Positions 366-33,042 of a DNA stretch of 64,000 bases are shown one piece after another (position 1 is the first letter of the stretch; each line of letters begins with the position of its first letter). Origin of the DNA: Candidatus Omnitrophota bacterium (lineage in GTDB: Bacteria > Omnitrophota > Gorgyraeia > JABMRG01 > JAFGKX01); NCBI GenBank assembly GCA_043797125.1, contig JAZDPX010000033.1:98527-162526 (forward strand), given 5' to 3'. A model generated the notes under the pieces. That model ran no database searches and was not told where the DNA came from. It saw nothing but the letters and a program-made list of their open reading frames with translations. The position numbers and the translations under genes were made by a program.

Positions 366-785
366 TTAAAACTGCTTCTCGTAACGCTCTATGTTTTCTT
401 GCGGAGTTTCTTTGGCAATCCAATATGTATTTGCCTTTTTGTTCCAATCTATATCCAAAAAACCTTTGCCGAATAATTTAGCTATCAAGCTTATGAGTGT
501 TAAAACCAAATAAAATAATGCGGTAAGAACCAGAAGCGTGGTAACCGCCATGATAACTTCTAAGGTTTTCTTGAGAACAATTTGAAGCGGCTTCAACGCA
601 ACCGGAGCAAAAATACCCAGAATAAAAATAACAGCGCTCACCGCGTAAAACCATGGATAGACATTCACGCGCCCCTTAAATAAATGCAGCGTGCCTATAA
701 TAGCCAATGCCGCTCCAAAAATAACTCCGAATTTTCGCAGTTCTTTCTTATTTGTTTCCATATTTCTCTCTATGCTATCGACCAT
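366..785 (-). CDS. Small polytopic membrane protein (3-4 TM helices) immediately downstream of a carbamoyltransferase; first codons lie in the heptamer array, so the true start is probably the internal Met (~761)
   Basis: 139-aa ORF with hydrophobic segments (GVIFGAALAIIGTLHLF, YAVSAVIFILGIFAPVAL, AVTTLLVLTALFYLVLTLISLIA). The small-membrane-protein-next-to-carbamoyltransferase arrangement recalls the saxitoxin sxtJ/sxtI pairing (analogy only). Confidence 0.45.
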   Translation of the reverse strand: MVDSIERNMETNKKELRKFGVIFGAALAIIGTLHLFKGRVNVYPWFYAVSAVIFILGIFAPVALKPLQIVLKKTLEVIMAVTTLLVLTALFYLVLTLISLIAKLFGKGFLDIDWNKKANTYWIAKETPQENIERYEKQF

Positions 786-813
786 CGACTATAGACCATA
801 GACTATAGACTAT
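776..813. repeat. Heptamer tandem array (gaccatc/gactata family), intergenic
   Basis: atcgaccatcgactatagaccatagactatagactatc. Confidence 0.9.
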
Positions 814-2709
814 CTAATCCGGTGCGATTTCACTTAAATCCCCTACTTTAATTTCTTCGGCGTTTTGTTCTTTCTTATTCAATAAATACGAACCCATTAT
901 AAGATAATCCATATTTGTGCGCATAAAACATTTATAAGCGTCCTCGGGAGTGCAACAAATAGGCTCTCCCCTTACATTAAAGGATGTGTTTATTACCAAA
1001 GGGCACCCTGTCAATTTATAAAAGGCGTTTATCATATCATAATATAAAGGGTTATCCTGCCGCTTTACAGTCTGCAGCCTAGCTGTATAATCGACATGTG
1101 TTATTGCCGGGACATTTGACCGTTTTACCTTAAGTTTATCAAGGCCCTTGAGCTTTTTGTCCTCTTCCTTACTCGGCAGCCGCTTCTCGTTTTTCACATC
1201 CGCTATTAAAAGCATGTACGGGCTTTCACATTCTAAATTAAAATACTCCTGCGCGTGGTCCAGCAAAACGCTCGGAGCAAACGGCCTGAATGATTCTCTG
1301 AATTTTATTTTAACATTCATTATGGTCTGCATGTCCTTGGAACGCGGATCGCCGAGTATGCTTCTTGAACCTAAGGCGCGCGGCCCGAATTCCATGCGCC
1401 CTTGAAACCAGCCAAGGACATTTTGAGCCGCTATAATCTCTGCGGCCTTTTGCGGTACAGCGGCGTTGGGCAATTTCACATGAGGTATATTTTTCCCTTT
1501 TAGGAATTCTTCGATCTGCTTATCTGAAAAGGACGGGCCTAAAAGCGTTGCCTTTTGCGAATCATTAGAGCCGTCGGCGTTTCTCTCCTTTGCGAGATAT
1601 ATATGCCATATTGCCAGCGCGGCACCTAAGGCTCCCCCCGCATCCGAGGCAGCGGGCTGTATCCATATCCTTTTAAAAGGGCTCTGGCGCAACAATTTTC
1701 CATTGGCAACACAATTTAGCGCAACGCCTCCGGCAAGACAAAGGTTTGTTTCTTTGGTCTGTTTATATACGTGGTTTGCCATTTTTAAGACCGCAGCTTC
1801 AGTCACGACTTGCACGGAACTGGCTAGATCCATATGTCTTTGTTCTATTTTTGCGTCAGGCTTTCTGGGAGGGCCGCCAAATAGCTCGTCAAATTTTCTG
1901 TTTGTCATAGTAAGGCCGGTGCAGTAATTAAAATATTTTAAATTAAGCTTCAGCGACCCGTCTTCTTTTAAATCTACGAGTTCTTTTAAAATCAAATCAA
2001 CATATTTTGGCTCTCCGTATGGCGCAAGGCCCATAAGCTTATATTCGCCTGAGTTGACTTTAAATCCGGTATAATAAGTAAATGCTGAATACAATAGCCC
2101 CAGCGAGTGCGGAAACCTTAATTCAGCGTGTATCTTTATTGTGTTTGCTTGTCCATTTCCATAACTAGCAGTAGCCCATTCGCCGACCCCGTCTATGGTC
2201 AAAATAGCTGCTCTTTTAAACGGTGACGGAAAAAACGCGCTTGACGCGTGAGACTCGTGATGCTCCGGAAACAAGATCTTGCCGTTAAATTGAAGCTGGC
2301 TTTCAATGTAATCTTTCAAGAAAAGTTTTTGTTTAATCCATGGGGGCATGGCCGTAAGAAAGGACCTTATGCCAAGCGGGGCAAAGGCAAGATACGTTTC
2401 AAGCAAGCGTTCAAATTTCACAAAAGGCTTATCGTAAAAGGCAACGTAGTCCATGCCGCGAGAATTTATCCCGGCCTGCTGCAGACAAAAATTGATTGAA
2501 TTAATAGGAAAGCTATAGTCGTGCTTGATCCTTGTAAAGCGTTCTTCCTGCGCAGCGGCTATTATTTCGCCATCTTTTAGGATAACGGCCGCCGCGTCAT
2601 GATAAAACGCTGATATGCCTAAAATATAGGTGGGTTTTTGTAGGCTCATGCTTAGTATTTCTATATGTGTAGTAGTTAAAATATTACTATATTTCGGTTG
2701 ATAGGTCAA
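814..2709 (-). CDS. Carbamoyltransferase, NodU/CmcH family
   Basis: 631 aa; N-terminal Kae1/HypF-like fold motif 'ILGISAFYHDAAAVILKDGEIIAAAQEERFTRIKHD' and C-terminal carbamoyltransferase domain. Confidence 0.85.
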   Translation of the reverse strand: MTYQPKYSNILTTTHIEILSMSLQKPTYILGISAFYHDAAAVILKDGEIIAAAQEERFTRIKHDYSFPINSINFCLQQAGINSRGMDYVAFYDKPFVKFERLLETYLAFAPLGIRSFLTAMPPWIKQKLFLKDYIESQLQFNGKILFPEHHESHASSAFFPSPFKRAAILTIDGVGEWATASYGNGQANTIKIHAELRFPHSLGLLYSAFTYYTGFKVNSGEYKLMGLAPYGEPKYVDLILKELVDLKEDGSLKLNLKYFNYCTGLTMTNRKFDELFGGPPRKPDAKIEQRHMDLASSVQVVTEAAVLKMANHVYKQTKETNLCLAGGVALNCVANGKLLRQSPFKRIWIQPAASDAGGALGAALAIWHIYLAKERNADGSNDSQKATLLGPSFSDKQIEEFLKGKNIPHVKLPNAAVPQKAAEIIAAQNVLGWFQGRMEFGPRALGSRSILGDPRSKDMQTIMNVKIKFRESFRPFAPSVLLDHAQEYFNLECESPYMLLIADVKNEKRLPSKEEDKKLKGLDKLKVKRSNVPAITHVDYTARLQTVKRQDNPLYYDMINAFYKLTGCPLVINTSFNVRGEPICCTPEDAYKCFMRTNMDYLIMGSYLLNKKEQNAEEIKVGDLSEIAPD

Positions 2710-2734
2710 GTTAAATACGCTTCACTTTTCTCCT

Positions 2735-2770: not shown

Positions 2771-4024
2771 ATGAAACGGACAATTATTTTAATTATATAT
2801 ATTATACTCTGTTATTCTGTCATGTGCTATGCGTCTTCTGGCGGTTCTGTTGAGTTATATTTTGCTACGGGTGAAAAATCGCAGACAGATGAAATCGAGG
2901 ACCGCGACCTTTCCGGGGATTTCGATTATTATAAATGCGGCTTTTCTTCCAATCTTAATTTAGAAAAAAATATATCCTTAAAAATGGGGTTCGACCAATA
3001 TCATAAGGATTTTTCAAGTCTTAATCAATCAAACGCGGACACCGATGTCTACAAGATAGGCGCTGATTTTCTTATCCTGGATAATAAGGAAAGCAGTTTA
3101 AATAGCGGGCTTGATTTTAGCCTGCGCAACAAACATTACAAAAGCGCGCCTCTTTCAAGTTATGACCAGCAAAGGGTAGACGGCGCAATAAAATATAAAC
3201 TCAAGGATATTTATTCGCTTGATTTAAATGCGGGAATAAATAATTACGAATATATTAACGATTATGATAATGATACGATGAAGGCTTTTTTAAAGATATC
3301 TCCTGGCGTCTACCTTTTTGATAAGGCTCTGGAATTGTCGGGGTTTTTTAGGGTACAGCGCTTAGACGCATACGGTAACAATAAAGACACAACGGAAACC
3401 ATGCAGGGCGCAACAACAACCCTAAATCTAGATACGCCATGCCTAAATAAAATAAGGGCTCAATTTGAAAACGGCAAAGAAAACACGCAGGATACGGAGG
3501 ACAGGGAAGATTCTCTAAGGTATAAATATCAGAAATGGAACGCCACAACATATCATAAATTTTTCGAAAAATTAAAAAACCAGGTCGAATACGGGCAAAA
3601 ACGCAGAGTATATCTTGCTAACGATAACGATTATGAAAACTGGTACATAAAAAACAAGAACACGCTCCTGGTTATAGAGAAAGATCCTTTTGACATGGAA
3701 CTTAGCGCGGACTACGAGCATAAGGAAACGACCTTTGACAGCCAGCACACCAAAAGCTATATTTCAAACAAGTTGGGCGGCGGGCTTTCCTTCTCCAGAA
3801 GAGCCGACTGGTCCTTTGACCCTGAATTCAGCTTCACAGGCTATGATTACACGCCAGGCTCAACATCAACACAGAAATCATACAAGGCGCAGATCGGCGC
3901 TAAAAAATACATTAGCGAGGATCTTATTCTTGAGGGCTACTACTGGCACAAATGGAAGGATTATAAAAATAAGGCAGACGCCGAGCAGTGGACCTTGAAC
4001 CTATCCTGCGCTGTCAGATTCTAA
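2771..4024 (+). CDS. Secreted protein, probable outer-membrane beta-barrel; the only substantial plus-strand gene in the first 50 kb
   Basis: N-terminal signal-peptide-like segment MKRTIILIIYIILCYSVMCYASS; alternating amphipathic pattern; C-terminal ...SCAVRF ends in Phe, typical of OMPs. Confidence 0.45.
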   Translation: MKRTIILIIYIILCYSVMCYASSGGSVELYFATGEKSQTDEIEDRDLSGDFDYYKCGFSSNLNLEKNISLKMGFDQYHKDFSSLNQSNADTDVYKIGADFLILDNKESSLNSGLDFSLRNKHYKSAPLSSYDQQRVDGAIKYKLKDIYSLDLNAGINNYEYINDYDNDTMKAFLKISPGVYLFDKALELSGFFRVQRLDAYGNNKDTTETMQGATTTLNLDTPCLNKIRAQFENGKENTQDTEDREDSLRYKYQKWNATTYHKFFEKLKNQVEYGQKRRVYLANDNDYENWYIKNKNTLLVIEKDPFDMELSADYEHKETTFDSQHTKSYISNKLGGGLSFSRRADWSFDPEFSFTGYDYTPGSTSTQKSYKAQIGAKKYISEDLILEGYYWHKWKDYKNKADAEQWTLNLSCAVRF

Positions 4025-5254
4025 CTCTTCTTCAGAAATATTACACACAGCAACTAAAATACCGGCAGTTATCCAGAAAATCGTTACTATTTTCAACGCA
4101 TATAACGAAGTATCAAAAAATGCGTTAACTAAATACGCGATAATCCCCGATACCAGGCTTAACAGAATGATCTTATAAAATTCGTCTTTTGTCTTCTTAA
4201 AACTCGACCTGGCCTTGGCAAATATCCTGAATAAAAAAAGTAAAAAAGTCCCAAGCCCAATCACGCCTATCTCCGCTGCCATCTGCAGGTATGAATTATG
4301 CGAATATATGCCGCCCCTGGGGTGCACTTTAAAGTTAGGGGCGACCAACGTGTATGTATTTATGCCCCAGCCTAAAAATGGCCTTTCCTTAATCATCTTA
4401 ATAGCTTCCTGCCAAAGGCCTATTCTGTATTCACTATACAATGTCTCCATGCTGTTTATTTCCTTTACCCTGCTTTCGACCTTCTGCGGCATAAAAAATG
4501 AAGTTATAAGCAATATGGCTAAAAAGCAGGCAAATATTTTTTTATTAAGCGCAAAAGTAAAAAATGACATGGAGATTAAAAACGCGATCCACGACGCGCG
4601 CACATAACTAAAAATAAGGGCAATAAACGCCGCTAAAAATAAGATAAAAAACATAAAGCGGTATTTAAAAAAATATTTCTTGCCAGCCGCCAGCCCAAAC
4701 AAAAGCGGGATATATGTAATCAAGTAGTTTCCAAAATCATTATGATGTAAAAAAGATGCAGTAATCATATAATCAAGATGCAGCGGGTATTTTCGGATTA
4801 AATCAAAGCCCGCGTAATACTGTATTGCGGCATCCAGGCACATTAAAGAAAAAGAAGCCAATAAAACAGAAATTAATATCTTAAGCCTTTTCTGCTCGGA
4901 AAACATATCCACTACGATTAGAAAAAATAGCGCGTATTCTATTGTTTTTGTGAACAATGCCTTTATGCTGTGGGAAAAGGAGAAGCTAAAAAGGCATGAT
5001 AAAAAATTAATAAAAATAAAAACTCCGAGCGCAAAAAAAATAAAATTGTATTTGTAAGCATACTTTTGAAAGGTTTTGTCTTTAAGCCAGAGTAAGACTT
5101 TTTTCACAACCCACGCTACAATTCCAATAGAACCAAATATTTCAATCCCAGCATTTGAAAAAGGTATTATAAATACCAAGGCATACATCGAGTACGTGGT
5201 AATGATATTTAGGCTTCTAATAATTTTTGACAAGCTTATTTCCTTTTTAAGCAA
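4001..5254 (-). CDS. O-antigen ligase/polymerase family (Wzy_C-like) polytopic membrane protein
   Basis: About 10 TM segments and the periplasmic loop motif 'YSHNSYLQMAAEIGVIGLG' (H-N-x-Y-L-...-E-x-G). Confidence 0.6.
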   Translation of the reverse strand: MLKKEISLSKIIRSLNIITTYSMYALVFIIPFSNAGIEIFGSIGIVAWVVKKVLLWLKDKTFQKYAYKYNFIFFALGVFIFINFLSCLFSFSFSHSIKALFTKTIEYALFFLIVVDMFSEQKRLKILISVLLASFSLMCLDAAIQYYAGFDLIRKYPLHLDYMITASFLHHNDFGNYLITYIPLLFGLAAGKKYFFKYRFMFFILFLAAFIALIFSYVRASWIAFLISMSFFTFALNKKIFACFLAILLITSFFMPQKVESRVKEINSMETLYSEYRIGLWQEAIKMIKERPFLGWGINTYTLVAPNFKVHPRGGIYSHNSYLQMAAEIGVIGLGTFLLFLFRIFAKARSSFKKTKDEFYKIILLSLVSGIIAYLVNAFFDTSLYALKIVTIFWITAGILVAVCNISEEELESDSAG

Positions 5255-5258: not shown

Positions 5259-6896
5259 TTATATTTTATTACGAATAATAATCTGGACTGTCTTTAAAAT
5301 AATCCATAAATCCAGCTTGAAACTTTGTTTTTGCTTGTATATCGCATTTAATCTCATTTTATGCACTAAAAGCCTATTATAATCATCTTCACGGTTGTTG
5401 CCGTTTAATTTGATTATTTCGTTGGCAAACACCAACTGGGACAAGCCTGTGACGCCTGGCTTAATATCTAGCAGGTGTTTTTTTGCAAATTGCTCATTTT
5501 TCAACCATTTTAAAGACAATGGCCTCGGCCCCACAACGCTCATATCGCCCTTTAAAACATTTATAAAATTTGGTATTTCGTCTATTTTAAAGCGCCTTAA
5601 AAATTTACCTATGTCCGTTACCCTCTTGTCGCCTTGATATGCAAACGGTAAATCTGTATCGATCGCCTTTTCAAACATAGATCTTATTTTATACATCGAA
5701 AACTCTCTGCCATTTAGGCCAAACCTTTTTGCCCTATAAAACACCGAACCTTTTGAAGTAATTTTTACAAGTAATGCACAGACAAGTAAAGGCAAGGCGC
5801 TTGATATCAAAGCTGCTGCTGAAAAAATTATATCAAAGAGCCGCTTTATCATAGCGTCATAGCTTATTTTGTTGTTGTCGACTAATACGTTTGCCCTGTT
5901 GATTAACAGACGCCTGAGGCCGGCAAAAAAACCTAAACCGTAAGAGACGTGGATTATTAAAAAAACTATAGGTAAAATAATAAAATATTCCAAACCATTA
6001 GCCATGGCCACTTTTGCTGTAAAATAGAACATAAGAATCGAATAAGCCCCGACGATTACGAAAAGCGGCAATTTTAAGCCGAATGATACGGCTACGGCTG
6101 CAATAATGGCTGATAAAACAAATAAAAACGGGATAAATTGCCTGTATTGCATGCTTTTGGGATGGCGTTTTGCAATCTCGACCTTCCAGTATCCATTACG
6201 GAAATTTTGGATCCACAGGCTGGCCAAATTGGTTTTAATATAATAATATATTTTTATCGACGGATTAAAAAATATCTTTCCTCCTCTATGCCGCAGCCTA
6301 TAATTAAACTCCGCATCCATGCCCCTTGATAGCGTTTCGTCAAAAAAACCTATTTTGTCAAAAACTTCCCTACGGTACGCGCCAAAAGCAACAGTATCCG
6401 CATATCCTTCCTTGCCCTGGCAGCGAAATTTAGGGCTGCCAAGCCCGAAATAACAGCCCGTTGCCAAAGAAACTGCTTTAGTAATATAGGTTTTGCCATT
6501 AGCCTCAATCTTGCCGCCAACGCAATCTGCTTTAACCTGGTCTAATAATGCCACATTCAAAGTTATAAAGTTCGGCAAGGCCCAGCTATGCGCCCCGAAA
6601 ATTATAATTATGTCGGCATCGCTGTGTATTATACCAATATTCAAGCCGGCAGAAGCAATCCTGGCTTTGTTGTACAGCAGCATAACCTTATGGTTGTTCG
6701 TAAGACCTTGCACTATATCTACCGAATTGTCGGTTGAGCCGCCGTCAACTACAATAATATCGCATTTATCATAATCCTGCGCAATTAACGATTCCAGGCA
6801 TTTTCGGATATACTGCTGCTCATTATACATGGGCACAATGACGCTGACTTTTGGCAGGTTAGCGTTTTTTGTACCCGTTGCAAAGTGCGTTTTCAT
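5259..6896 (-). CDS. Bifunctional fusion: N-terminal GT2 glycosyltransferase + C-terminal polyprenyl-phosphate phosphoglycosyltransferase (WbaP/PglC-type sugar transferase)
   Basis: N-term 'VSVIVPMYNEQQYIRKCLESL...VVDGGSTDNS'; C-term 'RLFDIIFSAAAL...YRAKRFGLNGREFSMYKIRSM...DEIPNFINVLKGDMSVVGPRPL'. Confidence 0.8.
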   Translation of the reverse strand: MKTHFATGTKNANLPKVSVIVPMYNEQQYIRKCLESLIAQDYDKCDIIVVDGGSTDNSVDIVQGLTNNHKVMLLYNKARIASAGLNIGIIHSDADIIIIFGAHSWALPNFITLNVALLDQVKADCVGGKIEANGKTYITKAVSLATGCYFGLGSPKFRCQGKEGYADTVAFGAYRREVFDKIGFFDETLSRGMDAEFNYRLRHRGGKIFFNPSIKIYYYIKTNLASLWIQNFRNGYWKVEIAKRHPKSMQYRQFIPFLFVLSAIIAAVAVSFGLKLPLFVIVGAYSILMFYFTAKVAMANGLEYFIILPIVFLIIHVSYGLGFFAGLRRLLINRANVLVDNNKISYDAMIKRLFDIIFSAAALISSALPLLVCALLVKITSKGSVFYRAKRFGLNGREFSMYKIRSMFEKAIDTDLPFAYQGDKRVTDIGKFLRRFKIDEIPNFINVLKGDMSVVGPRPLSLKWLKNEQFAKKHLLDIKPGVTGLSQLVFANEIIKLNGNNREDDYNRLLVHKMRLNAIYKQKQSFKLDLWIILKTVQIIIRNKI

Positions 6897-7944
6897 AATC
6901 TTTAATAACTTTTTTTGCGATTTCTAAGGGATTATGCCATCTCTCGACATACGCGCGGCTTTTTTGCCCCAGACCCGATAAAGTTTCTCTGTTTTTTACG
7001 ATTTCCTTAAGAACGCCGTATATGGTATCGGGCTGCGCGTTGATAACAGGCAAATCATTTCTCATCTGCTGAGGAATAAACTGTAAATCCTCACGCTTAA
7101 TATAACAAACCACGGGTTTGCCGCACGCCATTGCCTCAACTGAAACCGCCCCGTACCAGCCTATTAAAAGCTGATCCACCACAAGGTCAGCCTTTTTATA
7201 AATATCCTTTAGGCAATTATGGGGTGTTTTCTCGACGACCAACAGGTCCAGGCGATGGCCTTCCTGCTTTAATCTGTTCACCGCGTTGATAATATATTTT
7301 GTCCCCTTTATCTTTCTCTTGCTCGGCAAATGAATAATGTGAAATGTATTTTCAAAACCGTTGCCTTGGGATGGCGTCCATTCCCTTATATCTACGCTTG
7401 CGTAAGGCAAGAATTCGGCTTCAGGGCAGCTGCGGATAAGGTCGGGGTTTAAGGCGTATATTTTATCCGCATAGCGCCTTATGCTGTTAATTCTTCTTTT
7501 CTTAATAAAATCCGGCACCATGCTGTATCTAAGGGCGCTGGTTTTCATTAAGCGGGCGTCTGTTCCCTGCAAAGTAAAAAATATCTTCTTGCCTTTTCTC
7601 TTCAGCAGCGGCAGGTCAAGATGGTTCAGTAAAAAATACGGATAATCAAGGATGGATTTGCCGAAGTTAAAATGAAATACGTTATATTTTTCAATGGCAG
7701 AGCAAAGGAACCAATAGCGTTTCAGTTCCCTGCCGGGCGAAAATATCTTTTTTGCGCCGAGGTTTATATCCGCCGGATAACCGTAAGATGAGCTTCTGAA
7801 AACCATAACATCACTATTAACGCTATGCGTTCTCTCGGCTCTGGATAAACCCCATGGGTTTCCTCCTGTATCTGTCGGGCTGTGCAAAACATTTATTGTG
7901 TTTATTAGCATTTCTAGTTCCTTTTGACGCCGCTTGCCCGCCAA
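6859..7944 (-). CDS. GT-B fold glycosyltransferase (GT1/GT4-like)
   Basis: C-terminal Rossmann half with 'KADLVVDQLLIGWYGAVSVEAMACGKPVVC' resembling the GT4 E-x7-E region. Confidence 0.5.
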   Translation of the reverse strand: MAGKRRQKELEMLINTINVLHSPTDTGGNPWGLSRAERTHSVNSDVMVFRSSSYGYPADINLGAKKIFSPGRELKRYWFLCSAIEKYNVFHFNFGKSILDYPYFLLNHLDLPLLKRKGKKIFFTLQGTDARLMKTSALRYSMVPDFIKKRRINSIRRYADKIYALNPDLIRSCPEAEFLPYASVDIREWTPSQGNGFENTFHIIHLPSKRKIKGTKYIINAVNRLKQEGHRLDLLVVEKTPHNCLKDIYKKADLVVDQLLIGWYGAVSVEAMACGKPVVCYIKREDLQFIPQQMRNDLPVINAQPDTIYGVLKEIVKNRETLSGLGQKSRAYVERWHNPLEIAKKVIKDYENALCNGYKKR

Positions 7945-8708
7945 CTGATACCTTTATACAAGCTTATGCGGATATCGTTGAATTCGTTTGCGTTAAACCA
8001 GCTGCACACTTGCTTGTAGCTGATAAAATCAACCTGCGGAGCGTTGAGCTTGTCAAAAACATTAAGAAGGTTGCGCTGAAATGAAAATCTGCGAAAATTT
8101 CCAAAATACTCATAATAGGGCATCCTTTTTACGGGCAACCTATACAAGGAATACACAACCGGGTATAGCAACGCGGTAATAAATCCGGAGATTAGCAGCA
8201 GCGCTGTTCTTGATATTTTTTTCAGCAAGAGTTTCCTGGCCGGCTCAACTATCTTTTGCATTAAAAGATTGCCTTCCTTAGAATAAACCCATACAATCAA
8301 TTTGCCTCCGGGCTTAACATGCTTCTTAAGATTAGAAAAAGTCTTATCCGGGTTATCGGTATGATGAATTACACCTATGGCTATAACAACGTCAAATAGT
8401 CCGGGCAGGTTCATAGCGGCGATGTCATCTTCAATAAATGCTATATTGCTCAAGGAACCGCACCTGTTTCTAGCTATATCAATTGTATTTAAATCTACGG
8501 CTGTTACAGCTTTTGCGTGCTGGGCTATAAGAAATGTGTGGTGTCCCCCGCCGCAACCGCATTCTAAAACTGACTTGGATCTAATATCGTCAAGCGTATT
8601 GGGATATATCCATTCTGAAAAAAGAGATGATTCCTCATCCCTAAGCATCTGCCACTGTTTGCGCCACTGGTCTTGCTTGCTTTGCTTTGAGGCTTGCGCG
8701 CTTTTCAT
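7914..8708 (-). CDS. Class I SAM-dependent methyltransferase (start set at the internal Met forming an ATGA overlap with the upstream GT2 stop)
   Basis: 'VLECGCGGGHHTFLIA...DLN' motif I; 'KPGGKLIVWVY'. Confidence 0.8.
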   Translation of the reverse strand: MKSAQASKQSKQDQWRKQWQMLRDEESSLFSEWIYPNTLDDIRSKSVLECGCGGGHHTFLIAQHAKAVTAVDLNTIDIARNRCGSLSNIAFIEDDIAAMNLPGLFDVVIAIGVIHHTDNPDKTFSNLKKHVKPGGKLIVWVYSKEGNLLMQKIVEPARKLLLKKISRTALLLISGFITALLYPVVYSLYRLPVKRMPYYEYFGNFRRFSFQRNLLNVFDKLNAPQVDFISYKQVCSWFNANEFNDIRISLYKGISWRASGVKRN

Positions 8709-9580: not shown

Positions 9581-9583
9581 ATT

Positions 9584-26600: not shown

Positions 26601-26745
26601 CGAGGTTTACAAGTCTCCATCTTAATCCGATACAAATTATAGACAAAAGACAACCCGCACGCCTGGTAAAGGGCATGCCCTTTGTTTTGGCTGTGAAAGC
26701 TGTAAGCCTTTCTGCCAGCGTTGCCTTTTTATCCTTGGTGGACAT
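23629..26745 (-). CDS. Large multidomain glycosyltransferase (N-terminal TM region plus two GT-B-like modules); start uncertain
   Basis: GT4-like 'KVKIVHVTNHPGIEGTSMIRKAIDNLRDKGHDIDFVFLKGV' and a second Rossmann half near the C-terminus. Confidence 0.5.
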   Translation of the reverse strand: MSTKDKKATLAERLTAFTAKTKGMPFTRRAGCLLSIICIGLRWRLVNLAYRIIPLYKLQKLMGVVALGIKTIIKKSGNLYHRPFYTAANFFKILIIAIWWRIRNAIIKFSYRLKSSMLTLCKRFMLKPLYRFASHNFFMLMYPVNSLLAVALRNKKYKDSVLHISYMVHIPYYTTRILRRHGIKADYLAVGGKSPWWDKYDYNFYPVGPWQEFLFFWKVVARYEVIHSHFGIILSQTGWELPFLKLMGRKIVLHYRGCEARDPEKNKKLHPDVNICQHCDYEGWVCRKGKKRIQRIKKYVDISLVTTPDMKEFIPDAIHFPFFTPCIDYEKFRNRKAAFKAGEKVKIVHVTNHPGIEGTSMIRKAIDNLRDKGHDIDFVFLKGVTPEQALAEYRDADFSVGKLKMGYYANAQIESMFLDVPSITYARPEFMTQELRDSGFIFTSLKDLEKTLEFYITNPDEYEKKKLKARQSILKLHDNDKLSKQLLDIYGMKVAVTQNETNNIKRPFRVLHIGNIANNAYYNAKFLRREGVEADVLCYDNYWVMSSPEWEEADFEGTINDQQHPDWWRLNLRGYERPRWFAQGPFDLCVRYLAAKNLNMSKESEGLWLSLENARKIVCKTSYTQLLQKGKAVKKILQVPSVINRIIRILHDKTLIKLSAGLKARHDVYTFNGKPFHEKYLAHCSWLIDKFSKCFPDRPDRLTMDDLLPYEHRVSLLQGLFQHYDIIQGYATDPIFPILNVFHPYVAFEHGTLRDSPEIDWAYKGPFYDSPLSRLTALSYRMADYVFVTNTDCIQSAYRLGIENFELLPHPLDEENFSYQKEARNLINRTRNLDYIFFCPIRHDWQEKGVNRYIKILPRLRELIKGKFRVFFIPWGKEIQKSKHLINELGCNDLVEWVGPFGRVKLAQWLSAADVVLDQLVYPSFSGVTPRALACGAAVIVNYKPGDMDITFPEPPPVLSAQTEDEIIEQLFVALRPGFVSDHREKARFWIEKYHSSKQTLERMLAVYKGILAKKGTHDQYNQKFQEQMVPQQKVGVC

Positions 26746-28495
26746 ATTTTCTCCAAAGGCTAAACACAAATACATACCAGATGCGCGCAGCGTGCCCCGA
26801 GGCGCCGCGCGTAAAATCATCGAGCATAGCTTTTACATAATCAAAATTAAGCCATTCATAAATAGGGTTTCTTGCGTCCATTAGGTGCGATTCTATTATC
26901 GGTTGCAAGGGCCCGCGTAACCATTCAACAATGGGTATGCCAAAGCCCTGTTTCGGCCTTTCTATAAATGATGACGGGTAAAAACGCTCCGCGCTTTTTT
27001 TTAAAAGATATTTTGTCTTTATTCTTCCTAAGAAATTATTCCTTATGCGCAATGACAAAGGCAGTGTAAATGCCTGTTCGACGATTTTATGATCCAAAAG
27101 CGGCACCCGAACCTCAAGAGAATGCGCCATGCTCATTCTGTCAACTTTTGTAAGAACATCGCCCGGTAGATAGGTCTTAAAATCCTGCGCCTGAAAAAAT
27201 AACACCGGGTCGATATCAGTCTTTGTCTTAAGTGAAAAACTTATCCCCTCCGCAACAGGGAGATCGTTTGCAAAAAGCTCTTTAAGCATTGTTGTGTCGA
27301 AACCCTGCCGCTGCGCATTGTACAGCTGTCTGTGGCGCTCTTGCGGTTCGTCTATATTTTTATACGTATCCTGATAACTGTTATAGCCGCAGAAAAGCTC
27401 ATCTCCGCCATCACCTGAAAGGACCATCTTAACCGACTCGGCCGCTTCCTTTGAAACATAATACGTGGGTATGGCTGATGAATCCCCGAAAGGCTCTCCA
27501 AAATGCTGGGCTATTTTAGCGAACATCTCTTCTGCCAGTGTGGGGGTCACTATCTTTTCGTAATGGTCTGAGCCTATAAATACGCTCGCCTTTCGCGCGT
27601 AAGGGGTTTCCGAATGTTTCTGTTCACTAAACCCTATCGTAAATGTCCTTACGGGCTCCTTCATCTGTTTTGCCATAAGCGCGCTTACAAGGCTTGAATC
27701 AACACCACCGCTTAAAAAAGCCCCAAAGACAACGTCGCTTCTGACATACATCCGCATAGTTTCATCAAGAATGCCGTTTAAGTCATCAAGCCATTTTTCT
27801 TCTGTCTTCTCAGCAATGCCAGCTTCAATATCCCAATATTTAATATTTTCCCTCCTGCCGGTGATAGTATCTATCTCCAGATAATGACCGGGTTCAAGTT
27901 TATATATGTCTTCATAGATGGTAAGTGGTGCTGGTATATATTGATAGCGGAAATACTGGCACAAGCCACTGTGCGAAATCTTACGTTTAATATATGGCAA
28001 ACTAATAATAGGCAAAAGCTCAGAACAAAACACTGCGCATACAGGACTATAATAATAATACAACGGCTTGATTCCTACCCTGTCTCTGACAAGGTAGAGC
28101 TTACTCTTTGTGCTATTGTAAAGAGCAAAAGCAAACATCCCCCTAAAACGTCTGAGGCAATCAATGCCCCATTTTTCATATGAACGTAAAACAACTTCAG
28201 TATCCGATTCTGTTTTAAAATCAAATTCTGCCTTCAATTCTTCTCGCAGCTCAATATAATTATAGACCTCGCCATTATATGAAATAATTACGGTTTCACT
28301 ATCATTACATAAAGGTTGAGCGCCAAATTCAGGATCAATAATAGCAAGCCGGCTATGTGCAAGCCCAACACACTTATCTTGCCATATACCATTACCGTCC
28401 GGCCCGCGATGCACCAGCATACAATTCATTTTATCTAATTCATTGCGCTTAACTACCTTACCGTCAAAATTTACTATTCCAGCGATTCCGCACAT
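26729..28495 (-). CDS. Asparagine synthase-family amidotransferase (second copy)
   Basis: 'MCGIAGIVNFDG'; 'FLSGGVDSS'. Confidence 0.9.
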   Translation of the reverse strand: MCGIAGIVNFDGKVVKRNELDKMNCMLVHRGPDGNGIWQDKCVGLAHSRLAIIDPEFGAQPLCNDSETVIISYNGEVYNYIELREELKAEFDFKTESDTEVVLRSYEKWGIDCLRRFRGMFAFALYNSTKSKLYLVRDRVGIKPLYYYYSPVCAVFCSELLPIISLPYIKRKISHSGLCQYFRYQYIPAPLTIYEDIYKLEPGHYLEIDTITGRRENIKYWDIEAGIAEKTEEKWLDDLNGILDETMRMYVRSDVVFGAFLSGGVDSSLVSALMAKQMKEPVRTFTIGFSEQKHSETPYARKASVFIGSDHYEKIVTPTLAEEMFAKIAQHFGEPFGDSSAIPTYYVSKEAAESVKMVLSGDGGDELFCGYNSYQDTYKNIDEPQERHRQLYNAQRQGFDTTMLKELFANDLPVAEGISFSLKTKTDIDPVLFFQAQDFKTYLPGDVLTKVDRMSMAHSLEVRVPLLDHKIVEQAFTLPLSLRIRNNFLGRIKTKYLLKKSAERFYPSSFIERPKQGFGIPIVEWLRGPLQPIIESHLMDARNPIYEWLNFDYVKAMLDDFTRGASGHAARIWYVFVFSLWRKYVHQG

Positions 28496-29192
28496 TGTTT
28501 TTTATAAATTCCCAATAACTACGTGGTTTTAGGCAATAAAAATAATGATCTATTTCAAAATTAGTAATAACGACTTTTTCGATAGTAAAGTACTTTTTAA
28601 AGCTTTCCTCAAACCATGGTTTATCAAAATGAAAAAGGTGGTATTCATCAGCAGGTTTTATTTTCTCCCCGTGGGGATTATAATATTCAGCGCCTTTTAC
28701 AAATGCCAACCATGCAAGAAAAAAACCGTTTTTTTTGACAACCCTATATATTTCACTGTAAGCTTTATCAAGCAAAAAGACATGATCAAGCGAGGTTGCG
28801 GCTATAACAACATCAAAAAAATCTCTCCTCAACGGTAAGAATTCTGCAACACCTTTTTTAAAACAAAAAGGATGGTCCCGCGGCTCAGATATGGGATCAA
28901 TGCCCCATATTTTGTTTAAAGAATATCCTTCTAAATAAAGCGGCAACGGTTGCGGCCCACATCCGACATCCAAAATACGCCCTTTAAGAAATGGGGTTAT
29001 AAAATCCTTAAAGTGCGTTGCTATTTTGTGGCCTTCCACGCTGCAACTGTGCGCAGGAAACCCCGTATACTCCTTACTATTGACTGTCAGCAGCTCACGC
29101 CAAAGCCTGAAGGCGCAAGGGGCTGTCTTTTCTAAACGATGAAAGCTGCGATATAGATTTTTGTAATTCTGATTGCAATTAATGCTTCGCAT
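28464..29192 (-). CDS. SAM-dependent methyltransferase
   Basis: 'ILDVGCGPQPLPL' motif I; 'KKNGFFLAW'. Confidence 0.65.
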   Translation of the reverse strand: MRSINCNQNYKNLYRSFHRLEKTAPCAFRLWRELLTVNSKEYTGFPAHSCSVEGHKIATHFKDFITPFLKGRILDVGCGPQPLPLYLEGYSLNKIWGIDPISEPRDHPFCFKKGVAEFLPLRRDFFDVVIAATSLDHVFLLDKAYSEIYRVVKKNGFFLAWLAFVKGAEYYNPHGEKIKPADEYHLFHFDKPWFEESFKKYFTIEKVVITNFEIDHYFYCLKPRSYWEFIKNNVRNRWNSKF

Positions 29193-30429
29193 GCTGACTA
29201 TTTTCTTTTACTTTTGCTATACCTTTCATATCAAAATCGCCCTGGAATAGGCCTGTCGATTCGACATTAAAAACATAGGCATCGCCAGCATGATGTAAAA
29301 CTGTAAAGTTGCCATCGTCAGGCATATGCGCTATGCCACAGCACAGAAAATATTGGCCGCTTGCGAGGTTGCACACCAACTCAAATTCCACTTCCTGTTC
29401 CTGGCCTGCTTTTATAGAAACAAAGACATTTTGCACATAACTTGCCAGGCCGTATAAAACGCCGCCGCCGGGCTTCTGTATCCTGAATCCAACGCTTAAT
29501 CTTTCATAATCAGTATCGGCAAATACGGTGGCGCGAATATAATATTTTTTATCGTAAGTAAGCGTATTGACTTTGTTATACGCCTCATCAAAAATTAAGA
29601 TGTTTTTTACATATACGGGGGATGGCATTGCGCTTGCTACGCCTGACAGATCGCCAATAGTTGTTATTACATTTTCCTGTTTTTGTACTAACGCCCTCTC
29701 CTCATTTAAAATCTGCTCATAGCGATATCCGACATGGCGCGGTTCGTCGCGGCATATGAGCCGGCCCTGATGCAACAGAATGGCTGTATTGCATAATTCA
29801 TAAATAGAATTAAGACTATGGGTAACAAAAAAGACTGTAGCGCCATTTTGGGTTATCTTGCGGATACGGTTGAAGCATTTTTCAGCAAATAGGGTATCGC
29901 CCACTGAAAGTGCTTCATCAATAATAAAAATATCGGGCTCAACGCTTACTGCTACTGAAAATGTTAAACGTGCCTGCATTCCGCTTGAGTAAGTCTTAAA
30001 TGGCTGGTCAATTACAGAACCCAGCTCGCTAAATTCGATTATACCGCCTATTTTGCGGTTTATCTCTTCCCTGCTCATACCCATGCATAAGCCGCCCATA
30101 TGTATATTTTCGCGGCCTGTATATTCGCCGCTAAAACCTGTGCCGAGTTCAAGTATTGCCGAAATCTTACCGTTGACCTTTACGCTTCCGCATGTTCTAT
30201 CAAGCGTTCCTGTCAGTATTTTTAAAAGGGTGCTTTTTCCAGCGCCGTTTCTTCCCACAACACCAACTACCTCGCCGCGCTTGACCTCAAAGGATACGTC
30301 TTTTAGCGCCCAGAATTCGCGGTGCTTGGGTTTAGCGGTCAGAACTTCCCAAAACATATCAGCCGGCTTAGCGTAAATCTTAAACGCCTTGGAAAGATTC
30401 TTAACATCTATTGCGATATTATTGTTCAT
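29179..30429 (-). CDS. wzt: ABC transporter ATP-binding protein, Wzt-like (polysaccharide export) with C-terminal extra domain
   Basis: Walker A 'GVVGRNGAGKSTLL', signature 'YSSGMQARL', Walker B 'IFIIDEAL'; about 170-aa C-terminal extension; ATGA overlap with the permease gene. Confidence 0.85.
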   Translation of the reverse strand: MNNNIAIDVKNLSKAFKIYAKPADMFWEVLTAKPKHREFWALKDVSFEVKRGEVVGVVGRNGAGKSTLLKILTGTLDRTCGSVKVNGKISAILELGTGFSGEYTGRENIHMGGLCMGMSREEINRKIGGIIEFSELGSVIDQPFKTYSSGMQARLTFSVAVSVEPDIFIIDEALSVGDTLFAEKCFNRIRKITQNGATVFFVTHSLNSIYELCNTAILLHQGRLICRDEPRHVGYRYEQILNEERALVQKQENVITTIGDLSGVASAMPSPVYVKNILIFDEAYNKVNTLTYDKKYYIRATVFADTDYERLSVGFRIQKPGGGVLYGLASYVQNVFVSIKAGQEQEVEFELVCNLASGQYFLCCGIAHMPDDGNFTVLHHAGDAYVFNVESTGLFQGDFDMKGIAKVKENSQHAKH

Positions 30430-31262
30430 AGTAAATCGCCGAACATTATTTTGAAGCGCGCAAATAACGCGTAACCCGCGCAGAAAACAAAAAGCGAGCC
30501 CGCGGGGAATATAAACCATGCCCAGGGGTGCTGGAACCCGCAAAAATAAAATATATCCTGATAGCACCAACTCATATAGCTAAAAGGATTAAGATACAAT
30601 ACGCCTTTAAATATTTTAGGCACCATATCAGGAAGATAAAAAACCGGCATAATATATAAGCCCGCAACGCAGAAAACCTGGACAAAGTCTTTGGTGTCGC
30701 GCAAATAAACGCCTAAAACCGAAAGAATATATGAAACCCCTGCCATGGCCATCAGCTGAAAAATAAAAACAACGGGTATTAAAATATGCATCCACGTCAG
30801 GCTGCCGGCCTTTGTAAAAACATACATCAGGAGTAAAAATGTAGCTACAAACTGCGTTATAGACGAGGCTATTACCCCTTTTACAGGAAGAACCTCTATG
30901 GGAAAAACTGTCTGCTTGACCAGGTTCGCGTTATTAATAATAACAGTACTGCTTTTTGCCATGGATTCCTGAAAACTCATCCACGGTATCAGGCCGCTTA
31001 AAAGATATGTTGTGTAATCAACCGGGAATGCGCCGCGCGAGGCTATCTTCACCTTAAAAACATAAACAAATATAAAAACATATATTGCCATCAATATCAA
31101 CGGATGGCCTATGACCCATAACCTTCCGAATACCTGGCCTGCATATCTGTCCGATATTTCGCGGCGGGTCATCTCCCAGGTAAGCTGCCTGTATTTTGTA
31201 AGCAGGCTCACTATTTCCCTGAAGGCCTGAAAATGTTTCTTGAGATCAAACAACCTTTTCAT
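30426..31262 (-). CDS. wzm: ABC-2 type transporter permease, Wzm-like
   Basis: 6 TM helices, ABC-2 family architecture, translationally coupled to wzt. Confidence 0.8.
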   Translation of the reverse strand: MKRLFDLKKHFQAFREIVSLLTKYRQLTWEMTRREISDRYAGQVFGRLWVIGHPLILMAIYVFIFVYVFKVKIASRGAFPVDYTTYLLSGLIPWMSFQESMAKSSTVIINNANLVKQTVFPIEVLPVKGVIASSITQFVATFLLLMYVFTKAGSLTWMHILIPVVFIFQLMAMAGVSYILSVLGVYLRDTKDFVQVFCVAGLYIMPVFYLPDMVPKIFKGVLYLNPFSYMSWCYQDIFYFCGFQHPWAWFIFPAGSLFVFCAGYALFARFKIMFGDLL

Positions 31263-33042
31263 CTTCTAAAAATATCCTGTTCCACCATTCAAAACAAAGC
31301 AGGCTCCATATAAGAAGCCTGTGGTTTACTTTGCCTGAAATGTGTTCTGTTATTATTTTATTTATATACGCAGGTTTAAAATAGCCGCGATTCAGCGTCC
31401 TTTTATCTAAAATGATCTTTTTCACGTAATCAATAGATTCTCCCCTATACCAGGAAGCGTCAGGCGGGCTGAAACCCTGTTTTCTTTTTTCAATGATTCT
31501 TTTTGGAAGATATTTACTCATAGCCTTTCTTAAAATAAATTTTCCGGAGCCGCTGTTATGTTTGTATTCAGGCGGTATCTTCACGCTAAGCTGTAGCAGC
31601 TCTTTGTCTAAAAATGGCAGCCTTGCCTCCAGCGAGTTAGCCATGCTTATCTTGTCTTCTATAACAAGCAGGCCATGCAAAAAAGTCTTCAAGTCAAAAT
31701 AAAAAGCCCTGTTAAATGAGGCCTCGTTGTTTGAATTTTTTACTATATCTTTATAAATGTCATACGTCGCCAACCCCTTTATTTTTGACCAGGCCTGACC
31801 GCTAAAAAACTTCTTCTTATCCTCATCCGGCATAAGCCTGAGCCAATAACGATAATATTTATCGTCAAATTTATCAATATTTTTGCAGTCTTTGATTAAT
31901 TCGTAGCGCCAAGGGTAACCTCCGAAAATCTCGTCTCCCCCGCCGCCTGTTAACACCACTTTGACAAACCTGCTGGCAAGCTGCGCAACATAGAAATTCT
32001 GATAGCACATACCCACCCTTAAGTCCTCGAGATGCCACACAAGTTTTGGCATTATATGCTGCATATCGCCCGAATGTATCACCATCTCATAATGAGTTGT
32101 ATGAAAACGCCTTGCTATTGCTTCTGCGTCCTTTCTTTCGTCAAAGACCATCTCCATGCCGGATGCCGACGTAAGGTCAAATCCTCCGGTAAAGGTCATC
32201 AAGCGCGGTATCTTAGCGGATGCCACGGCAACTATTGATGCCGAATCCATCCCGCCGCTTAGATAACTGCCTATCGGGACATCGCTTATTAAGTGACGGA
32301 TAACACTTTTCTCAAACACATCTAACACCTTTTTGGTATATGCTTTTTCGCTTAATCTTTCTTCATCAAAGACGATATCCCGATATTGTTTTTGCTCTAA
32401 GCCTTCCTTTGTAACAACCAGCATATGTCCCGGAGAAAGAAGCTTAACGCCCTCAAAAAGAGTTCTGTCCGTAAATATATTCTGAAAGGTAAAATATTCG
32501 CCGAGCGCTTCCAGGCATATCTTTTTTGTGAAATCATTAAGCTTAAAGAACGCTTTTATTTCCGATGCAAAAGAAAATTGCCTGTTCTTGTAGTAGTAAT
32601 ACAGCGGCTTTGTGCCGAATATGTCTCTTGCTAAAAAAAGTCTTTCTTTTTTCTTGTCTCATATCGCAAATGCGAATTCGCCGTTAAATTTCTGAAGACA
32701 TTCTTCGCCCCATTCTTCGTAGGAATGGATAATAACCTCTATGTCTGTCTTGGAACTGAACCTGTGGCCTTTTGATTCCAGTACAGATACCAATTCAAGG
32801 TAATTATATATCTCTCCGTTAGCGATAAGAAAAATATTTTTATCTTCATTGGGCATGGGTTGCCTGCCCAAAGAAGAAAGGTCTATTATTGAAAGCCTCC
32901 TGTGGGCCAGGCCGATATTTTTGTCAATATACTCGCCTTTGTCGTCGGGGCCGCGGTGTTGTAAGGCCTCGGACATACCGTTTATCTGAGCACAGGATAT
33001 GCTTTTATTATCCAGATTATAAATGCCTGCTATACCGCACAT
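31246..33042 (-). pseudogene. Asparagine synthase-family gene (third copy) interrupted by a single in-frame TGA at 32659-32661; otherwise full length and collinear
   Basis: N-terminal fragment ends '...GEFAFAI*' and the same frame continues 'DKKKERLFLARDIFGTKPLYYYY...' into the 392-aa ORF; the stop sits where paralogs have Y/W (FAFALYD / FAIALYD). Confidence 0.75.

Follow-up and report, generated by a model that had tools for sequence, protein, structure and literature searches.

How far does a gene cluster that combines amidotransferases, carbamoyltransferases, methyltransferases and cobalamin-dependent radical-SAM (S-adenosylmethionine) enzymes depart from the known routes to bacterial surface glycans? 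The question is raised by a stretch of 64,000 nucleotides (nt) from a Candidatus Omnitrophota bacterium (GenBank assembly GCA_043797125.1, contig JAZDPX010000033.1, positions 98,527 to 162,526), the whole of which we call the 64-kb window. In Omnitrophota genomes, polysaccharide cassettes have been reported as hypervariable loci (bioRxiv 10.64898/2026.06.07.730766). To judge by its gene content, the window holds a surface-polysaccharide cluster of ~47 kb whose overall type is familiar and whose unusual part consists of two pairs of a glycosyltransferase family 2 (GT2) enzyme and a B12-binding radical-SAM enzyme, together with three genes for membrane proteins of predicted GT-C fold. The O-antigen-type cassette itself is ordinary; the interest lies in the GT2/radical-SAM module and in the orphan GT-C families.

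Gene families were assigned by Pfam and NCBIfam scans of open reading frames (ORFs) of at least 100 amino acids (aa) in the window. A first-pass annotation, made from the sequence without database searches, had named two carbamoyltransferases, three AsnB-type amidotransferases, two B12-radical-SAM enzymes, GT2 and GT-B glycosyltransferases, a GT2-phosphoglycosyltransferase fusion, an O-antigen-ligase-like (Wzy_C) protein and a Wzm/Wzt exporter, and the two libraries agree with it gene by gene and position by position; none of the carbamoyltransferase or AsnB calls was reassigned in the Pfam scan. Its four methyltransferases are likewise found by Pfam, as three stand-alone enzymes and one domain fused to a radical-SAM enzyme. 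The domain content thus bears out a glycan-assembly locus with an ATP-binding cassette (ABC) exporter (Wzm/Wzt) and with enzymes for amidation, O-carbamoylation, methylation and cobalamin/radical-SAM chemistry.

The two GT2/radical-SAM pairs comprise the following genes:
8705-9580, minus strand: GT2a, polyprenyl-phosphate-sugar-synthase-like (NCBIfam AglJ, Dol-P-hexose transferase, ArnC and PpgS; hydrophobic at residues 216-286)
9584-10987, minus strand: rSAM1, a B12-binding radical-SAM protein (B12-binding 79.8 bits, Radical_SAM 78.1 bits)
17995-20064, minus strand: rSAM2, a B12-binding radical-SAM protein with a fused class I methyltransferase domain at residues 534-673 (Pfam B12-binding and Radical_SAM)
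21960-22820, minus strand: GT2b, polyprenyl-phosphate-sugar-synthase-like (AglJ 3e-39, PpgS, ArnC)

Both GT2 enzymes carry membrane helices C-terminal to their catalytic domain and belong to a size class of ~290-320 aa. Enzymes of the AglJ, ArnC and PpgS types load a sugar onto polyprenyl phosphate, and GT2a and GT2b look like such polyprenyl-phosphate-sugar synthases, their best NCBIfam matches all lying below the equivalog cutoffs. The GT2a gene directly follows rSAM1, and GT2b is parted from rSAM2 by a single amidotransferase gene, AsnB1.

By their domains and their cysteine motif (CxxxCxxC; C210, C214 and C217, invariant in 23 radical-SAM sequences), rSAM1 and rSAM2 are assigned to the class B, that is, cobalamin-dependent, radical-SAM enzymes. 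The best NCBIfam match of rSAM1 is HpnJ (TIGR03471), against which the two enzymes reach 203 and 174 bits (cutoff 577.6); overall, the best named families are the non-methylases BchE and HpnJ at ~200 bits, followed by methylase families at 95-150 bits, all below cutoff. Since the best named matches are HpnJ and BchE, and fall so far short of the cutoffs, methylation is not assumed here. No hopanoid genes were seen among the window proteins scanned. The fusion of a radical-SAM enzyme to a methyltransferase also occurs in metagenome-assembled genomes (MAGs) of Deltaproteobacteria, at ~41% identity. A small corrinoid-binding protein (B12-binding and B12-binding_2) is encoded at 55078-55782, some 35 kb away from the B12-radical-SAM genes; taken with them, it suggests that the organism uses cobalamin.

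A radical-SAM alignment searched against one genome per species returned 80 loci, of which the 51 that span at least 12 kb were counted. Almost all of the 80 stem from metagenome-assembled or single-cell genomes, and they fall in Hydrogenedentes, Saccharibacteria, Desulfobacterales, Altiarchaeota, Woese- and Nanoarchaeota and two Omnitrophota. A GT2b homologue lies within 10 kb of the radical-SAM relative in 38 of the 51 loci and within 1.5 kb in 24 of them. Unsupervised clustering of the neighbours recovered a ~295-aa GT2 (35/51 loci), and a hidden Markov model (HMM) of this cluster matches both GT2a (6e-68) and GT2b (6.4e-89) over their full length. The same clustering returned a ~215-aa class I methyltransferase, of the same domain kind as the rSAM2 fusion, in 16/51 loci and LPG_synthase_TM flippase-like proteins in 10 and 6 loci; GT4 enzymes were also among the neighbours, as were, in several loci, GT-C proteins of the PMT/PMT_2 families. 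The window has two copies of the GT2/radical-SAM pair; a methyltransferase, a flippase-like protein and GT-C transferases are frequent companions of the pair at the other loci.

Two or more radical-SAM paralogues were found in 14 of 49 loci, and four in some. In Saccharibacteria, the order is GT2, radical SAM, radical SAM and a 315-aa ORF, joined by a 4-nt overlap, a further 4-nt overlap and a 14-nt gap; in some Saccharibacteria and Woesearchaeota loci, four paralogous B12-radical-SAM genes surround one GT2 (L012 at 6059-12855, and L071). Another locus (L002) reads GT2, two PMT_2 genes, GT2, radical-SAM-methyltransferase fusion, LPG_synthase_TM and AsnB, and the metagenomic contexts of individual homologues present a similar toolbox with AsnB, DegT and acetyltransferase genes added. 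The tailoring combination is thus shared with other uncultured organisms and no peculiarity of the window. In one neighbourhood related to that of the second carbamoyltransferase (L006, 6107-8548), an 813-aa sulfotransferase-domain protein is encoded between GT2 and LPG_synthase_TM genes, a context that hints at sulfation as part of the same toolbox.

Between the two pairs lie the second carbamoyltransferase and three genes for large membrane proteins:
10965-12539, minus strand: 524-aa membrane protein of predicted GT-C fold, from a rare family (AlphaFold (AF2) model, Foldseek, sub-threshold PMT_2)
12589-14319, minus strand: CarbT2, a carbamoyltransferase (Carbam_trans_C 181 bits, Carbam_trans_N 122 bits, both above the Pfam cutoffs)
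14316-15878, minus strand: 520-aa paralogue of the 524-aa protein (46% identity, E 6e-171)
15910-17982, minus strand: 690-aa membrane protein of predicted GT-C fold, from a second rare family (AF2 model, Foldseek)

The paralogy of the 520- and 524-aa proteins had already been noticed in the first-pass annotation, and the alignment given above agrees. Their family is small (16 proteins found), and no Pfam match was obtained for the 520-aa protein. The 524-aa protein reaches 22.6 bits against PMT_2 (cutoff 26.1) and weakly matches an NCBIfam family of putative glycosyltransferases from Leptospira. An AF2 model built from a 15-sequence alignment (predicted local distance difference test, pLDDT, 85.9; predicted template-modelling (TM) score, pTM, 0.87) was compared with the PDB by Foldseek, and its top 23 matches are all GT-C enzymes or GT-C-like folds, the best being ArnT (E 8e-4, TM ~0.33); among the matches are STT3/PglB/AglB, ALG3/9/12, PMTs, the glycosylphosphatidylinositol (GPI)-transamidase subunit PIG-U and GPI mannosyltransferase I. 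The GT-C match is stronger for the 690-aa protein, whose model (pLDDT 82.3) retrieves ALG12 (8e-6), ArnT (8.6e-5) and Pmt4 with TM-scores of up to 0.54. This second family has 12 representatives among 1.84 billion cluster representatives, and a Pfam scan of all its members gave no match. Profile searches of both families against PDB sequences returned nothing meaningful, and profile-profile comparison of the 524-aa with the 690-aa family detected no similarity. An aspartate is invariant in each family (Asp40, in the first loop, in the 524-aa family and D114 in the 690-aa family), both in loops that follow early helices, and may be the acidic residue that GT-C enzymes conserve in their first extracytoplasmic loop. 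From the models, the 520-, 524- and 690-aa proteins are therefore predicted to be GT-C-fold glycosyltransferases from two orphan families, encoded consecutively or nearly so.

The first-pass annotation had instead paired the 520- and 524-aa proteins with CarbT2, as its membrane partners. This pairing was rejected: neither side keeps the other elsewhere, and the 524-aa model matches GT-C enzymes. The nearest homologues of CarbT2 are 53-56% identical, and no neighbour of the 524/520-aa type was found at the loci of its nearest relatives; conversely, no carbamoyltransferase adjoins the 524-aa-family homologues in the two other contexts examined, one with three tandem paralogues by a GGDEF gene in a Nitrospirae MAG (L007), the other beside a SPASM radical-SAM gene.

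Three AsnB-type amidotransferases are distributed over the cluster:
20061-21953, minus strand: AsnB1, WbpS-like (Asn_synthase 330 bits plus GATase_7; TIGR03108 585.7 bits)
26729-28495, minus strand: AsnB2 (Asn_synthase 304 bits; TIGR03108 542.7 bits)
31246-33042, minus strand: AsnB3, 598 codons in one continuous frame, interrupted only by a TGA at 32659-32661

All three have the N-terminal cysteine nucleophile, the GATase and Asn_synthase domains and the SGGxDS loop. The best specific family of AsnB1 and AsnB2 is TIGR03108 (eps_aminotran_1), both scoring below its cutoff of 816.9. AsnB3 had been described as decaying. Advanced decay is excluded by the finding of a lone stop codon in an otherwise intact frame, in which Cys2 and SGGxDS are preserved; the TGA (...gcg ata TGA gac..., FAFAI*DKK) stands where the paralogues carry tyrosine, and could be a recent nonsense mutation, an assembly or population (strain) variant, or a site of read-through.

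The remaining genes of the main train serve assembly, export and methylation:
4001-5254, minus strand: polytopic membrane protein of the Wzy_C family (72.9 bits, cutoff 31.7; ~10 hydrophobic segments)
5259-6896, minus strand: fusion of GT2 and a polyprenyl-phosphate phosphoglycosyltransferase, the initiating enzyme (Bac_transf 176 bits at residues 351-541, Glycos_transf_2 at 18-182, EPS_sugtrans 1e-58)
6859-7911, minus strand: GT-B enzyme, GT4-like (Glycos_transf_1 26.5 bits, cutoff 26.4; HMM of the neighbour GT4 cluster 1e-14)
7914-8708, minus strand: MT1, class I SAM methyltransferase (Methyltransf_11, E 1.8e-16)
22821-23693, minus strand: MT2, class I SAM methyltransferase (Methyltransf_23, E 2.7e-15)
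23629-26745, minus strand: ~1040-aa protein of two GT-B-like halves, a candidate chain extender (GT1-family matches at residues 867-1031 and, weakly, ~439-488)
28464-29192, minus strand: MT3, class I SAM methyltransferase directly after wzt (Methyltransf_11, E 3.7e-11)
29179-30429, minus strand: Wzt, ABC ATPase with C-terminal carbohydrate-binding domain (ABC_tran 77.4 bits, Wzt_C 66.7 bits, cutoff 30.4)
30426-31262, minus strand: Wzm, ABC-2 permease (ABC2_membrane 43.5 bits; six hydrophobic segments)

The Wzy_C family does not separate O-antigen ligases from Wzy polymerases. The GT4 cluster HMM matches each half of the ~1040-aa protein, and MT3 is, from its position only, a candidate chain-end methylase. 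Start codons were refined from the sequence, so that the extents of several genes differ from those of the long ORFs (unrefined: CarbT1, the first carbamoyltransferase, 814-2709; GT-B 6859-7944; MT1 7914-8789; MT2 22821-23810; ~1040-aa GT-B protein 23629-26820; Wzt 29179-30570).

With the refined starts, the spacing at each of the 19 junctions between 33042 and 4001 is within -65 to +49 nt; genes overlap at 11 of them, five times by 4 nt (for example, wzt with the Wzm stop codon, and MT1 with that of GT2a). Tight packing persists upstream of 33042 as far as 47091, with gaps of at most 121 nt in the block of sugar-precursor genes, and the cluster hence reaches ~47 kb, beyond the bound of 33042 given in the first-pass annotation. 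The single co-oriented train that had been claimed holds for the packed minus-strand genes from 33042 to 4001, whereas a plus-strand gene at 2771-4024 splits off CarbT1. Apart from it, every long ORF of the window with a family match is on the minus strand; GC skew is negative in all 2-kb bins of the window but one. The minus-strand bias spans the whole 64-kb region, and the cluster is therefore not set apart by its co-orientation. Scans for promoters and terminators returned numbers close to those expected from shuffling or modestly higher, most of the sites fell inside genes, and operon ends could not be placed from them, the exception being a promoter-like site ahead of the plus-strand gene. 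In homologue searches, three window proteins matched one MAG labelled Candidatus Omnitrophota (locus tags V2A72_06255 and V2A72_06265) at 100% identity; beyond this genome, the nearest homologues detected with three cluster proteins as queries share 39-62% identity. Within the cluster, identities between paralogues amount to 46% (524/520-aa proteins), 27% (CarbT1/CarbT2), 34% (rSAM1/rSAM2) and 33-40% (the three AsnB copies), values at which none of these sets is a recent duplication.

The precursor genes form one contiguous block:
33044-47091, minus strand: nucleotide-sugar precursor block (Pfam and NCBIfam)

It encodes epimerases/dehydratases, a WbpB-like 3-dehydrogenase fused to an acetyltransferase, two NDP-sugar 6-dehydrogenases, a DegT aminotransferase, RmlB (455 bits, cutoff 365), RmlD (313 bits, cutoff 224), a frameshifted RmlA and an RmlC-like cupin, and by these families supplies uronic acids, 3-amino/acetamido sugars and 6-deoxyhexoses. 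RmlA is broken at 44193-44299: a TAG stop follows its 28 N-terminal codons (MTKGVILCGGLGSRLYPLT...), which begin at 44299, and the remainder (VYNKPMIYYP...) lies in another frame from 44208, with ~7 extra bases at the junction. Between the broken RmlA and the cupin, a free-standing LAGLIDADG_3 homing-endonuclease ORF of 341 aa was found (44315-45340, E 5e-10). The cupin (149 aa, 45297-45746) also matches Polysacc_synt_C (E 5.7e-16), which we take to be a membrane-flippase C-terminal domain; this match looks like an artefact of the model rather than biology. At 36606-38114, a 134-aa protein of the 23S rRNA-intervening-sequence family (E 3e-30) and one of 356 aa from DUF3187 are encoded amid the nucleotide-sugar genes.

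An LptD gene lies a few genes from the cluster. Just past it, two neighbouring genes encode diguanylate cyclases (GGDEF), of which one also has a GAF domain (50260-53039); the 524-aa-family homologues of the Nitrospirae MAG likewise adjoin a GGDEF gene. Farther on, a 1195-aa protein (59161-62748) is recognisable only in sigma-70 regions 2 and 3 near its C-terminus (residues 890-1045), and the next gene encodes a 1007-aa protein (56115-59138) with no Pfam match.

At the other end of the cluster, the first carbamoyltransferase is found in a setting of its own:
97-255, minus strand: DUF5989 (SxtK-like) single-helix protein of 52 aa, last gene of the trio (Pfam DUF5989 E 7.1e-26, 90.5 bits)
366-785, minus strand: SxtJ-like small membrane protein (3-4 hydrophobic segments; weak full-length match to Pfam SxtJ)
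814-2649, minus strand: CarbT1, a carbamoyltransferase of the NodU/CmcH type (Carbam_trans_N 347 bits, 1.5e-103; Carbam_trans_C 248 bits, 6e-74; likely start ATG 2649)
2771-4024, plus strand: secreted protein, probable outer-membrane beta-barrel (signal peptide, C-terminal Phe, no further hydrophobic helices)

CarbT1 has both Carbam_trans domains above the Pfam cutoffs. The SxtJ match of its small neighbour covers the whole profile at 16 bits (E 0.021; cutoff 24.4), and the DUF5989 gene had been missed in the first-pass annotation, which had, in turn, rightly seen the small protein at 366-785 as a membrane partner of CarbT1. SxtI, SxtJ and SxtK are the carbamoyltransferase and two small companions of saxitoxin clusters, for which joint action has been proposed (PMC2679770). 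A metagenome scan yielded more than 563 relatives of CarbT1, of which the best 80 loci, 60-78% identical, were kept. Where there was room downstream (68 loci), an SxtJ-like gene follows directly in 49, a DUF5989 gene lies downstream in 51, and both are present in 48. AsnB was encountered in only 2/34 such loci and a GT2b-type GT2 in 1/34; as the other cluster families are almost never present there, the trio represents a widespread self-contained module, which occurs away from glycan clusters in other genomes and, by these counts, is a generic autonomous module that abuts the glycan cluster here.

The intervening plus-strand gene runs towards the Wzy_C gene and away from CarbT1, and is preceded by a promoter-like TTGCAA-16-TATAAT with TG at 2734-2761. 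Its product has no match in Pfam or NCBIfam; the signal peptide and C-terminal Phe, with no other helices, suggest an outer-membrane barrel. Because this gene on the opposite strand intervenes, CarbT1 is transcribed apart from the main train, and its placement on the main-train transcript is ruled out. One metagenomic relative (L152) keeps the local order, with a phosphoglycosyltransferase, then, after other genes, Wzy_C (42%), the opposite-strand barrel (57%) and the carbamoyltransferase (64%), so that the adjacency of trio and cluster may not be accidental. Together with its SxtJ and DUF5989 partners, CarbT1 may act on the glycan made by the cluster or on a different glycan of the envelope.

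What, then, might the cluster make? Its domain content points to polyprenyl-phosphate initiation (Bac_transf), GT-B extension, Wzm/Wzt export and a ligase-type Wzy_C protein. We propose, with about as much confidence as doubt, that the locus specifies an ABC-transporter-dependent surface polysaccharide of the O-antigen type that is amidated and methylated in the cytoplasm and decorated in the periplasm with tailored lipid-linked sugars. The polymer would be built on undecaprenyl phosphate at the cytoplasmic side, and its uronic acids would be converted into uronamides by the WbpS-like AsnB enzymes, a role proposed because eps_aminotran_1, their best specific family, includes WbpS and WbqG. Class I methyltransferases would methylate the polymer, and one of them, perhaps MT3, would make a chain-end mark to be read by the Wzt domain; in ABC-dependent systems, Wzt reads methylated chain ends. 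The GtrB/ArnC-like GT2a and GT2b would make polyprenyl-phosphate monosaccharides, to be tailored by the adjacent B12-radical-SAM enzymes while still lipid-linked, a stage at which the methyltransferase domain fused to rSAM2, CarbT2 and AsnB1 probably act too. The tailored sugars would then be flipped across the membrane and transferred onto the exported glycan, outside the cytoplasm, by the three GT-C-fold proteins. This periplasmic branch is modelled on ArnC/ArnD/ArnT and HpnI/HpnK/HpnJ. A more general and more tentative suggestion, which we regard as possible rather than probable, is that the pair of GT2 synthase and B12-radical-SAM enzyme constitutes an undescribed route, widespread in Omnitrophota, Desulfobacterota, Saccharibacteria and Woese-/Nanoarchaeota, in which a lipid-linked sugar is C-methylated or ring-rearranged by radical chemistry and then installed on the surface by a GT-C enzyme. 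In the window, such a route would be present twice and be served by the orphan GT-C-fold proteins.

Several points weigh against this proposal. The gene functions are predicted from sequence and structure models only, and the level at which the radical-SAM enzymes would act (lipid-linked, nucleotide-linked or polymer) is taken from analogy. For the radical-SAM, GT2 and carbamoyltransferase genes, all specific NCBIfam matches are far below cutoff, and AsnB1 and AsnB2 pass the generic TIGR01536 while remaining below the cutoff of the specific TIGR03108. The GT-C call for the 524-aa protein combines weak Foldseek scores with a sub-threshold PMT_2 match. The GT2-radical-SAM linkage in 35-38 of 51 loci was counted without a matched control, and glycan loci of any kind commonly contain GT2 genes. 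The cluster has no gene recognisable as a flippase (LPG_synthase_TM, GtrA or Wzx). Finally, the TGA in AsnB3 and the frameshift in RmlA may mean that the locus is partly non-functional or the assembly imperfect.

The absence of a flippase gene from the cluster also favours a conventional scheme in which all tailoring is cytoplasmic, nucleotide sugars or the growing polymer are C-methylated by the radical-SAM enzymes in the manner of the class B methylases of aminoglycoside pathways, the small GT2s are ordinary chain glycosyltransferases and the GT-C proteins serve unrelated functions. The cobalamin-dependent radical-SAM enzymes characterised so far are mostly methylases, matches to C- and P-methyltransferase families of NCBIfam reach 100-150 bits, and the nucleotide-sugar precursor block adjoins. 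This scheme nevertheless leaves three GT-C-fold genes among the tailoring genes unexplained; moreover, the GT2 near each radical-SAM gene belongs, with its C-terminal membrane helices, to the polyprenyl-phosphate-sugar-synthase type, and the pairing recurs in 35-38 of 51 loci alongside flippase-like and GT-C genes. On balance, we consider it rather doubtful. It is unlikely, in our view, that the cluster is a composite of two or more systems, that is, an ABC-exported O-polysaccharide (~22.8-33 kb plus 4-8 kb) and a separate GT-C system (~8.7-22.8 kb) with proteins or lipid A/core, instead of the O-chain, as acceptors, since the genes are interleaved without a break, overlapping or at most 49 nt apart, and AsnB and methyltransferase genes are present in both halves. 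Such a division would agree with the structural matches of the 524- and 690-aa models, among them ArnT, a modifier of lipid A, as well as PMTs and STT3, which glycosylate proteins, and with the presence of the GT2-radical-SAM module in bacteria of the Candidate Phyla Radiation (CPR) and DPANN archaea; as these, to our knowledge, lack lipopolysaccharide, the acceptor cannot always be an O-antigen.

A small-molecule natural product, for example, an aminoglycoside- or saxitoxin-like carbamoylated compound, would be an entirely different outcome. Antibiotic and toxin clusters commonly contain carbamoyltransferases with SxtJ/SxtK partners (PMC2679770), and AsnB homologues, B12-radical-SAM enzymes and methyltransferases are common there too. 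The present genes, however, include Wzm/Wzt with Wzt_C, a phosphoglycosyltransferase, Wzy_C, many GT-B, GT2 and GT-C enzymes and a nearby LptD, all indicative of envelope glycan assembly, and no polyketide synthase, nonribosomal peptide synthetase or cyclase was seen among the scanned ORFs, which makes this outcome very improbable.

Should the radical-SAM enzymes indeed modify polyprenyl-linked sugars, this would represent a new class of reaction in glycan tailoring, and unusual branched or ring-contracted sugars would be predicted on the cell surfaces of CPR bacteria, DPANN archaea and Omnitrophota, many of which are described as episymbionts. In addition, the locus offers a functional context for three unannotated membrane proteins (520, 524 and 690 aa).

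How, finally, does the cluster compare with known systems? The first-pass annotation had supposed a polysaccharide of a kind not described for any cultured organism, which was overstated. Carbamoylation of a Pseudomonas core heptose has been assigned to the putative carbamoyltransferase WapO (PMC8005017), uronamides are made by the AsnB-type enzymes WbpS and WbqG, members of eps_aminotran_1 (PMC7468200), and the wbm O-antigen of Bordetella bronchiseptica consists of di-N-acetylated uronic acids, partly as uronamide, with three glutamine-dependent amidotransferases encoded by wbmC, wbmI and wbmZ (PMC2615507). Amidation, carbamoylation and methylation are each already known for surface glycans of cultured bacteria, and only the radical-SAM component is without a described precedent in the literature searched: no description of a cobalamin/radical-SAM role in envelope glycan assembly or on lipid-linked sugars was found in the open-access literature, and polyprenyl, undecaprenyl and dolichol substrates go unmentioned in a review from 2026 on radical-SAM enzymes in lipid modification.

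E. coli O9a/O8 and the Klebsiella O-types have an ABC-dependent O-polysaccharide with a Wzt carbohydrate-binding domain. The present cluster shares with them Wzm and a Wzt_C-bearing Wzt, a multi-domain GT-B candidate polymerase, possible capping methyltransferases and a Wzy_C protein, whereas here a Bac_transf-GT2 fusion would initiate, many tailoring genes and three GT-C-fold genes are added, and none of the genes was recognised as encoding a ruler protein (kinase/methyltransferase) like WbdD. With Bordetella wbm it has in common three AsnB genes as well as WbpB/WbpD-like, DegT and NDP-sugar dehydrogenase genes, a likeness in gene content; radical-SAM, carbamoyltransferase and GT-C genes are not reported there. 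AsnB1 and AsnB2 have the two-domain architecture of WbpS/WbqG, and Wbp-pathway-like genes adjoin, although both enzymes score below the TIGR03108 cutoff. The carbamoyltransferases share the Carbam_trans_N and Carbam_trans_C architecture of NodU, NolO and WapO but reach only 137 and 84 bits against the NodU equivalog (NF041651; cutoff 1000), and the succession of SxtI, SxtJ and SxtK is mirrored by CarbT1 with its SxtJ-like and DUF5989 (SxtK-like) genes, in contrast to CarbT2, which lacks such partners.

The periplasmic branch finds its closest counterparts in two systems that act on lipid-linked sugars. In the Arn system, an ArnC-type GT2 synthase is followed by ArnD, which modifies the lipid-linked sugar, and by the GT-C enzyme ArnT, which transfers it. 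The GT2 polyprenyl-phosphate-sugar synthase type and the GT-C-fold genes are found here as in Arn/Gtr, whereas the proposed modifiers are B12-radical-SAM, methyltransferase, carbamoyltransferase and amidotransferase enzymes and no ArnE/F- or GtrA-type flippase is recognisable; the LPG_synthase_TM genes at other radical-SAM loci presumably resemble HpnL. Related to Arn/Gtr-type periplasmic glycosylation is work on GacI/GacL (bioRxiv 10.1101/180810). In the hopanoid side-chain pathway, the GT2 HpnI couples an amino sugar to a lipid, and HpnJ has been genetically implicated in, and is hypothesised to catalyse, the ring rearrangement (contraction) of the lipid-linked glucosamine (PMC13459092). At 203 bits against a cutoff of 578, rSAM1 is not an HpnJ equivalog, no hopanoid genes were seen in the window, and the lipid would here presumably be polyprenyl phosphate; what the cluster would share with HpnI/HpnK/HpnJ and calditol synthase is a GT2 that acts on a lipid and a B12-radical-SAM enzyme proposed to act on the lipid-linked sugar.

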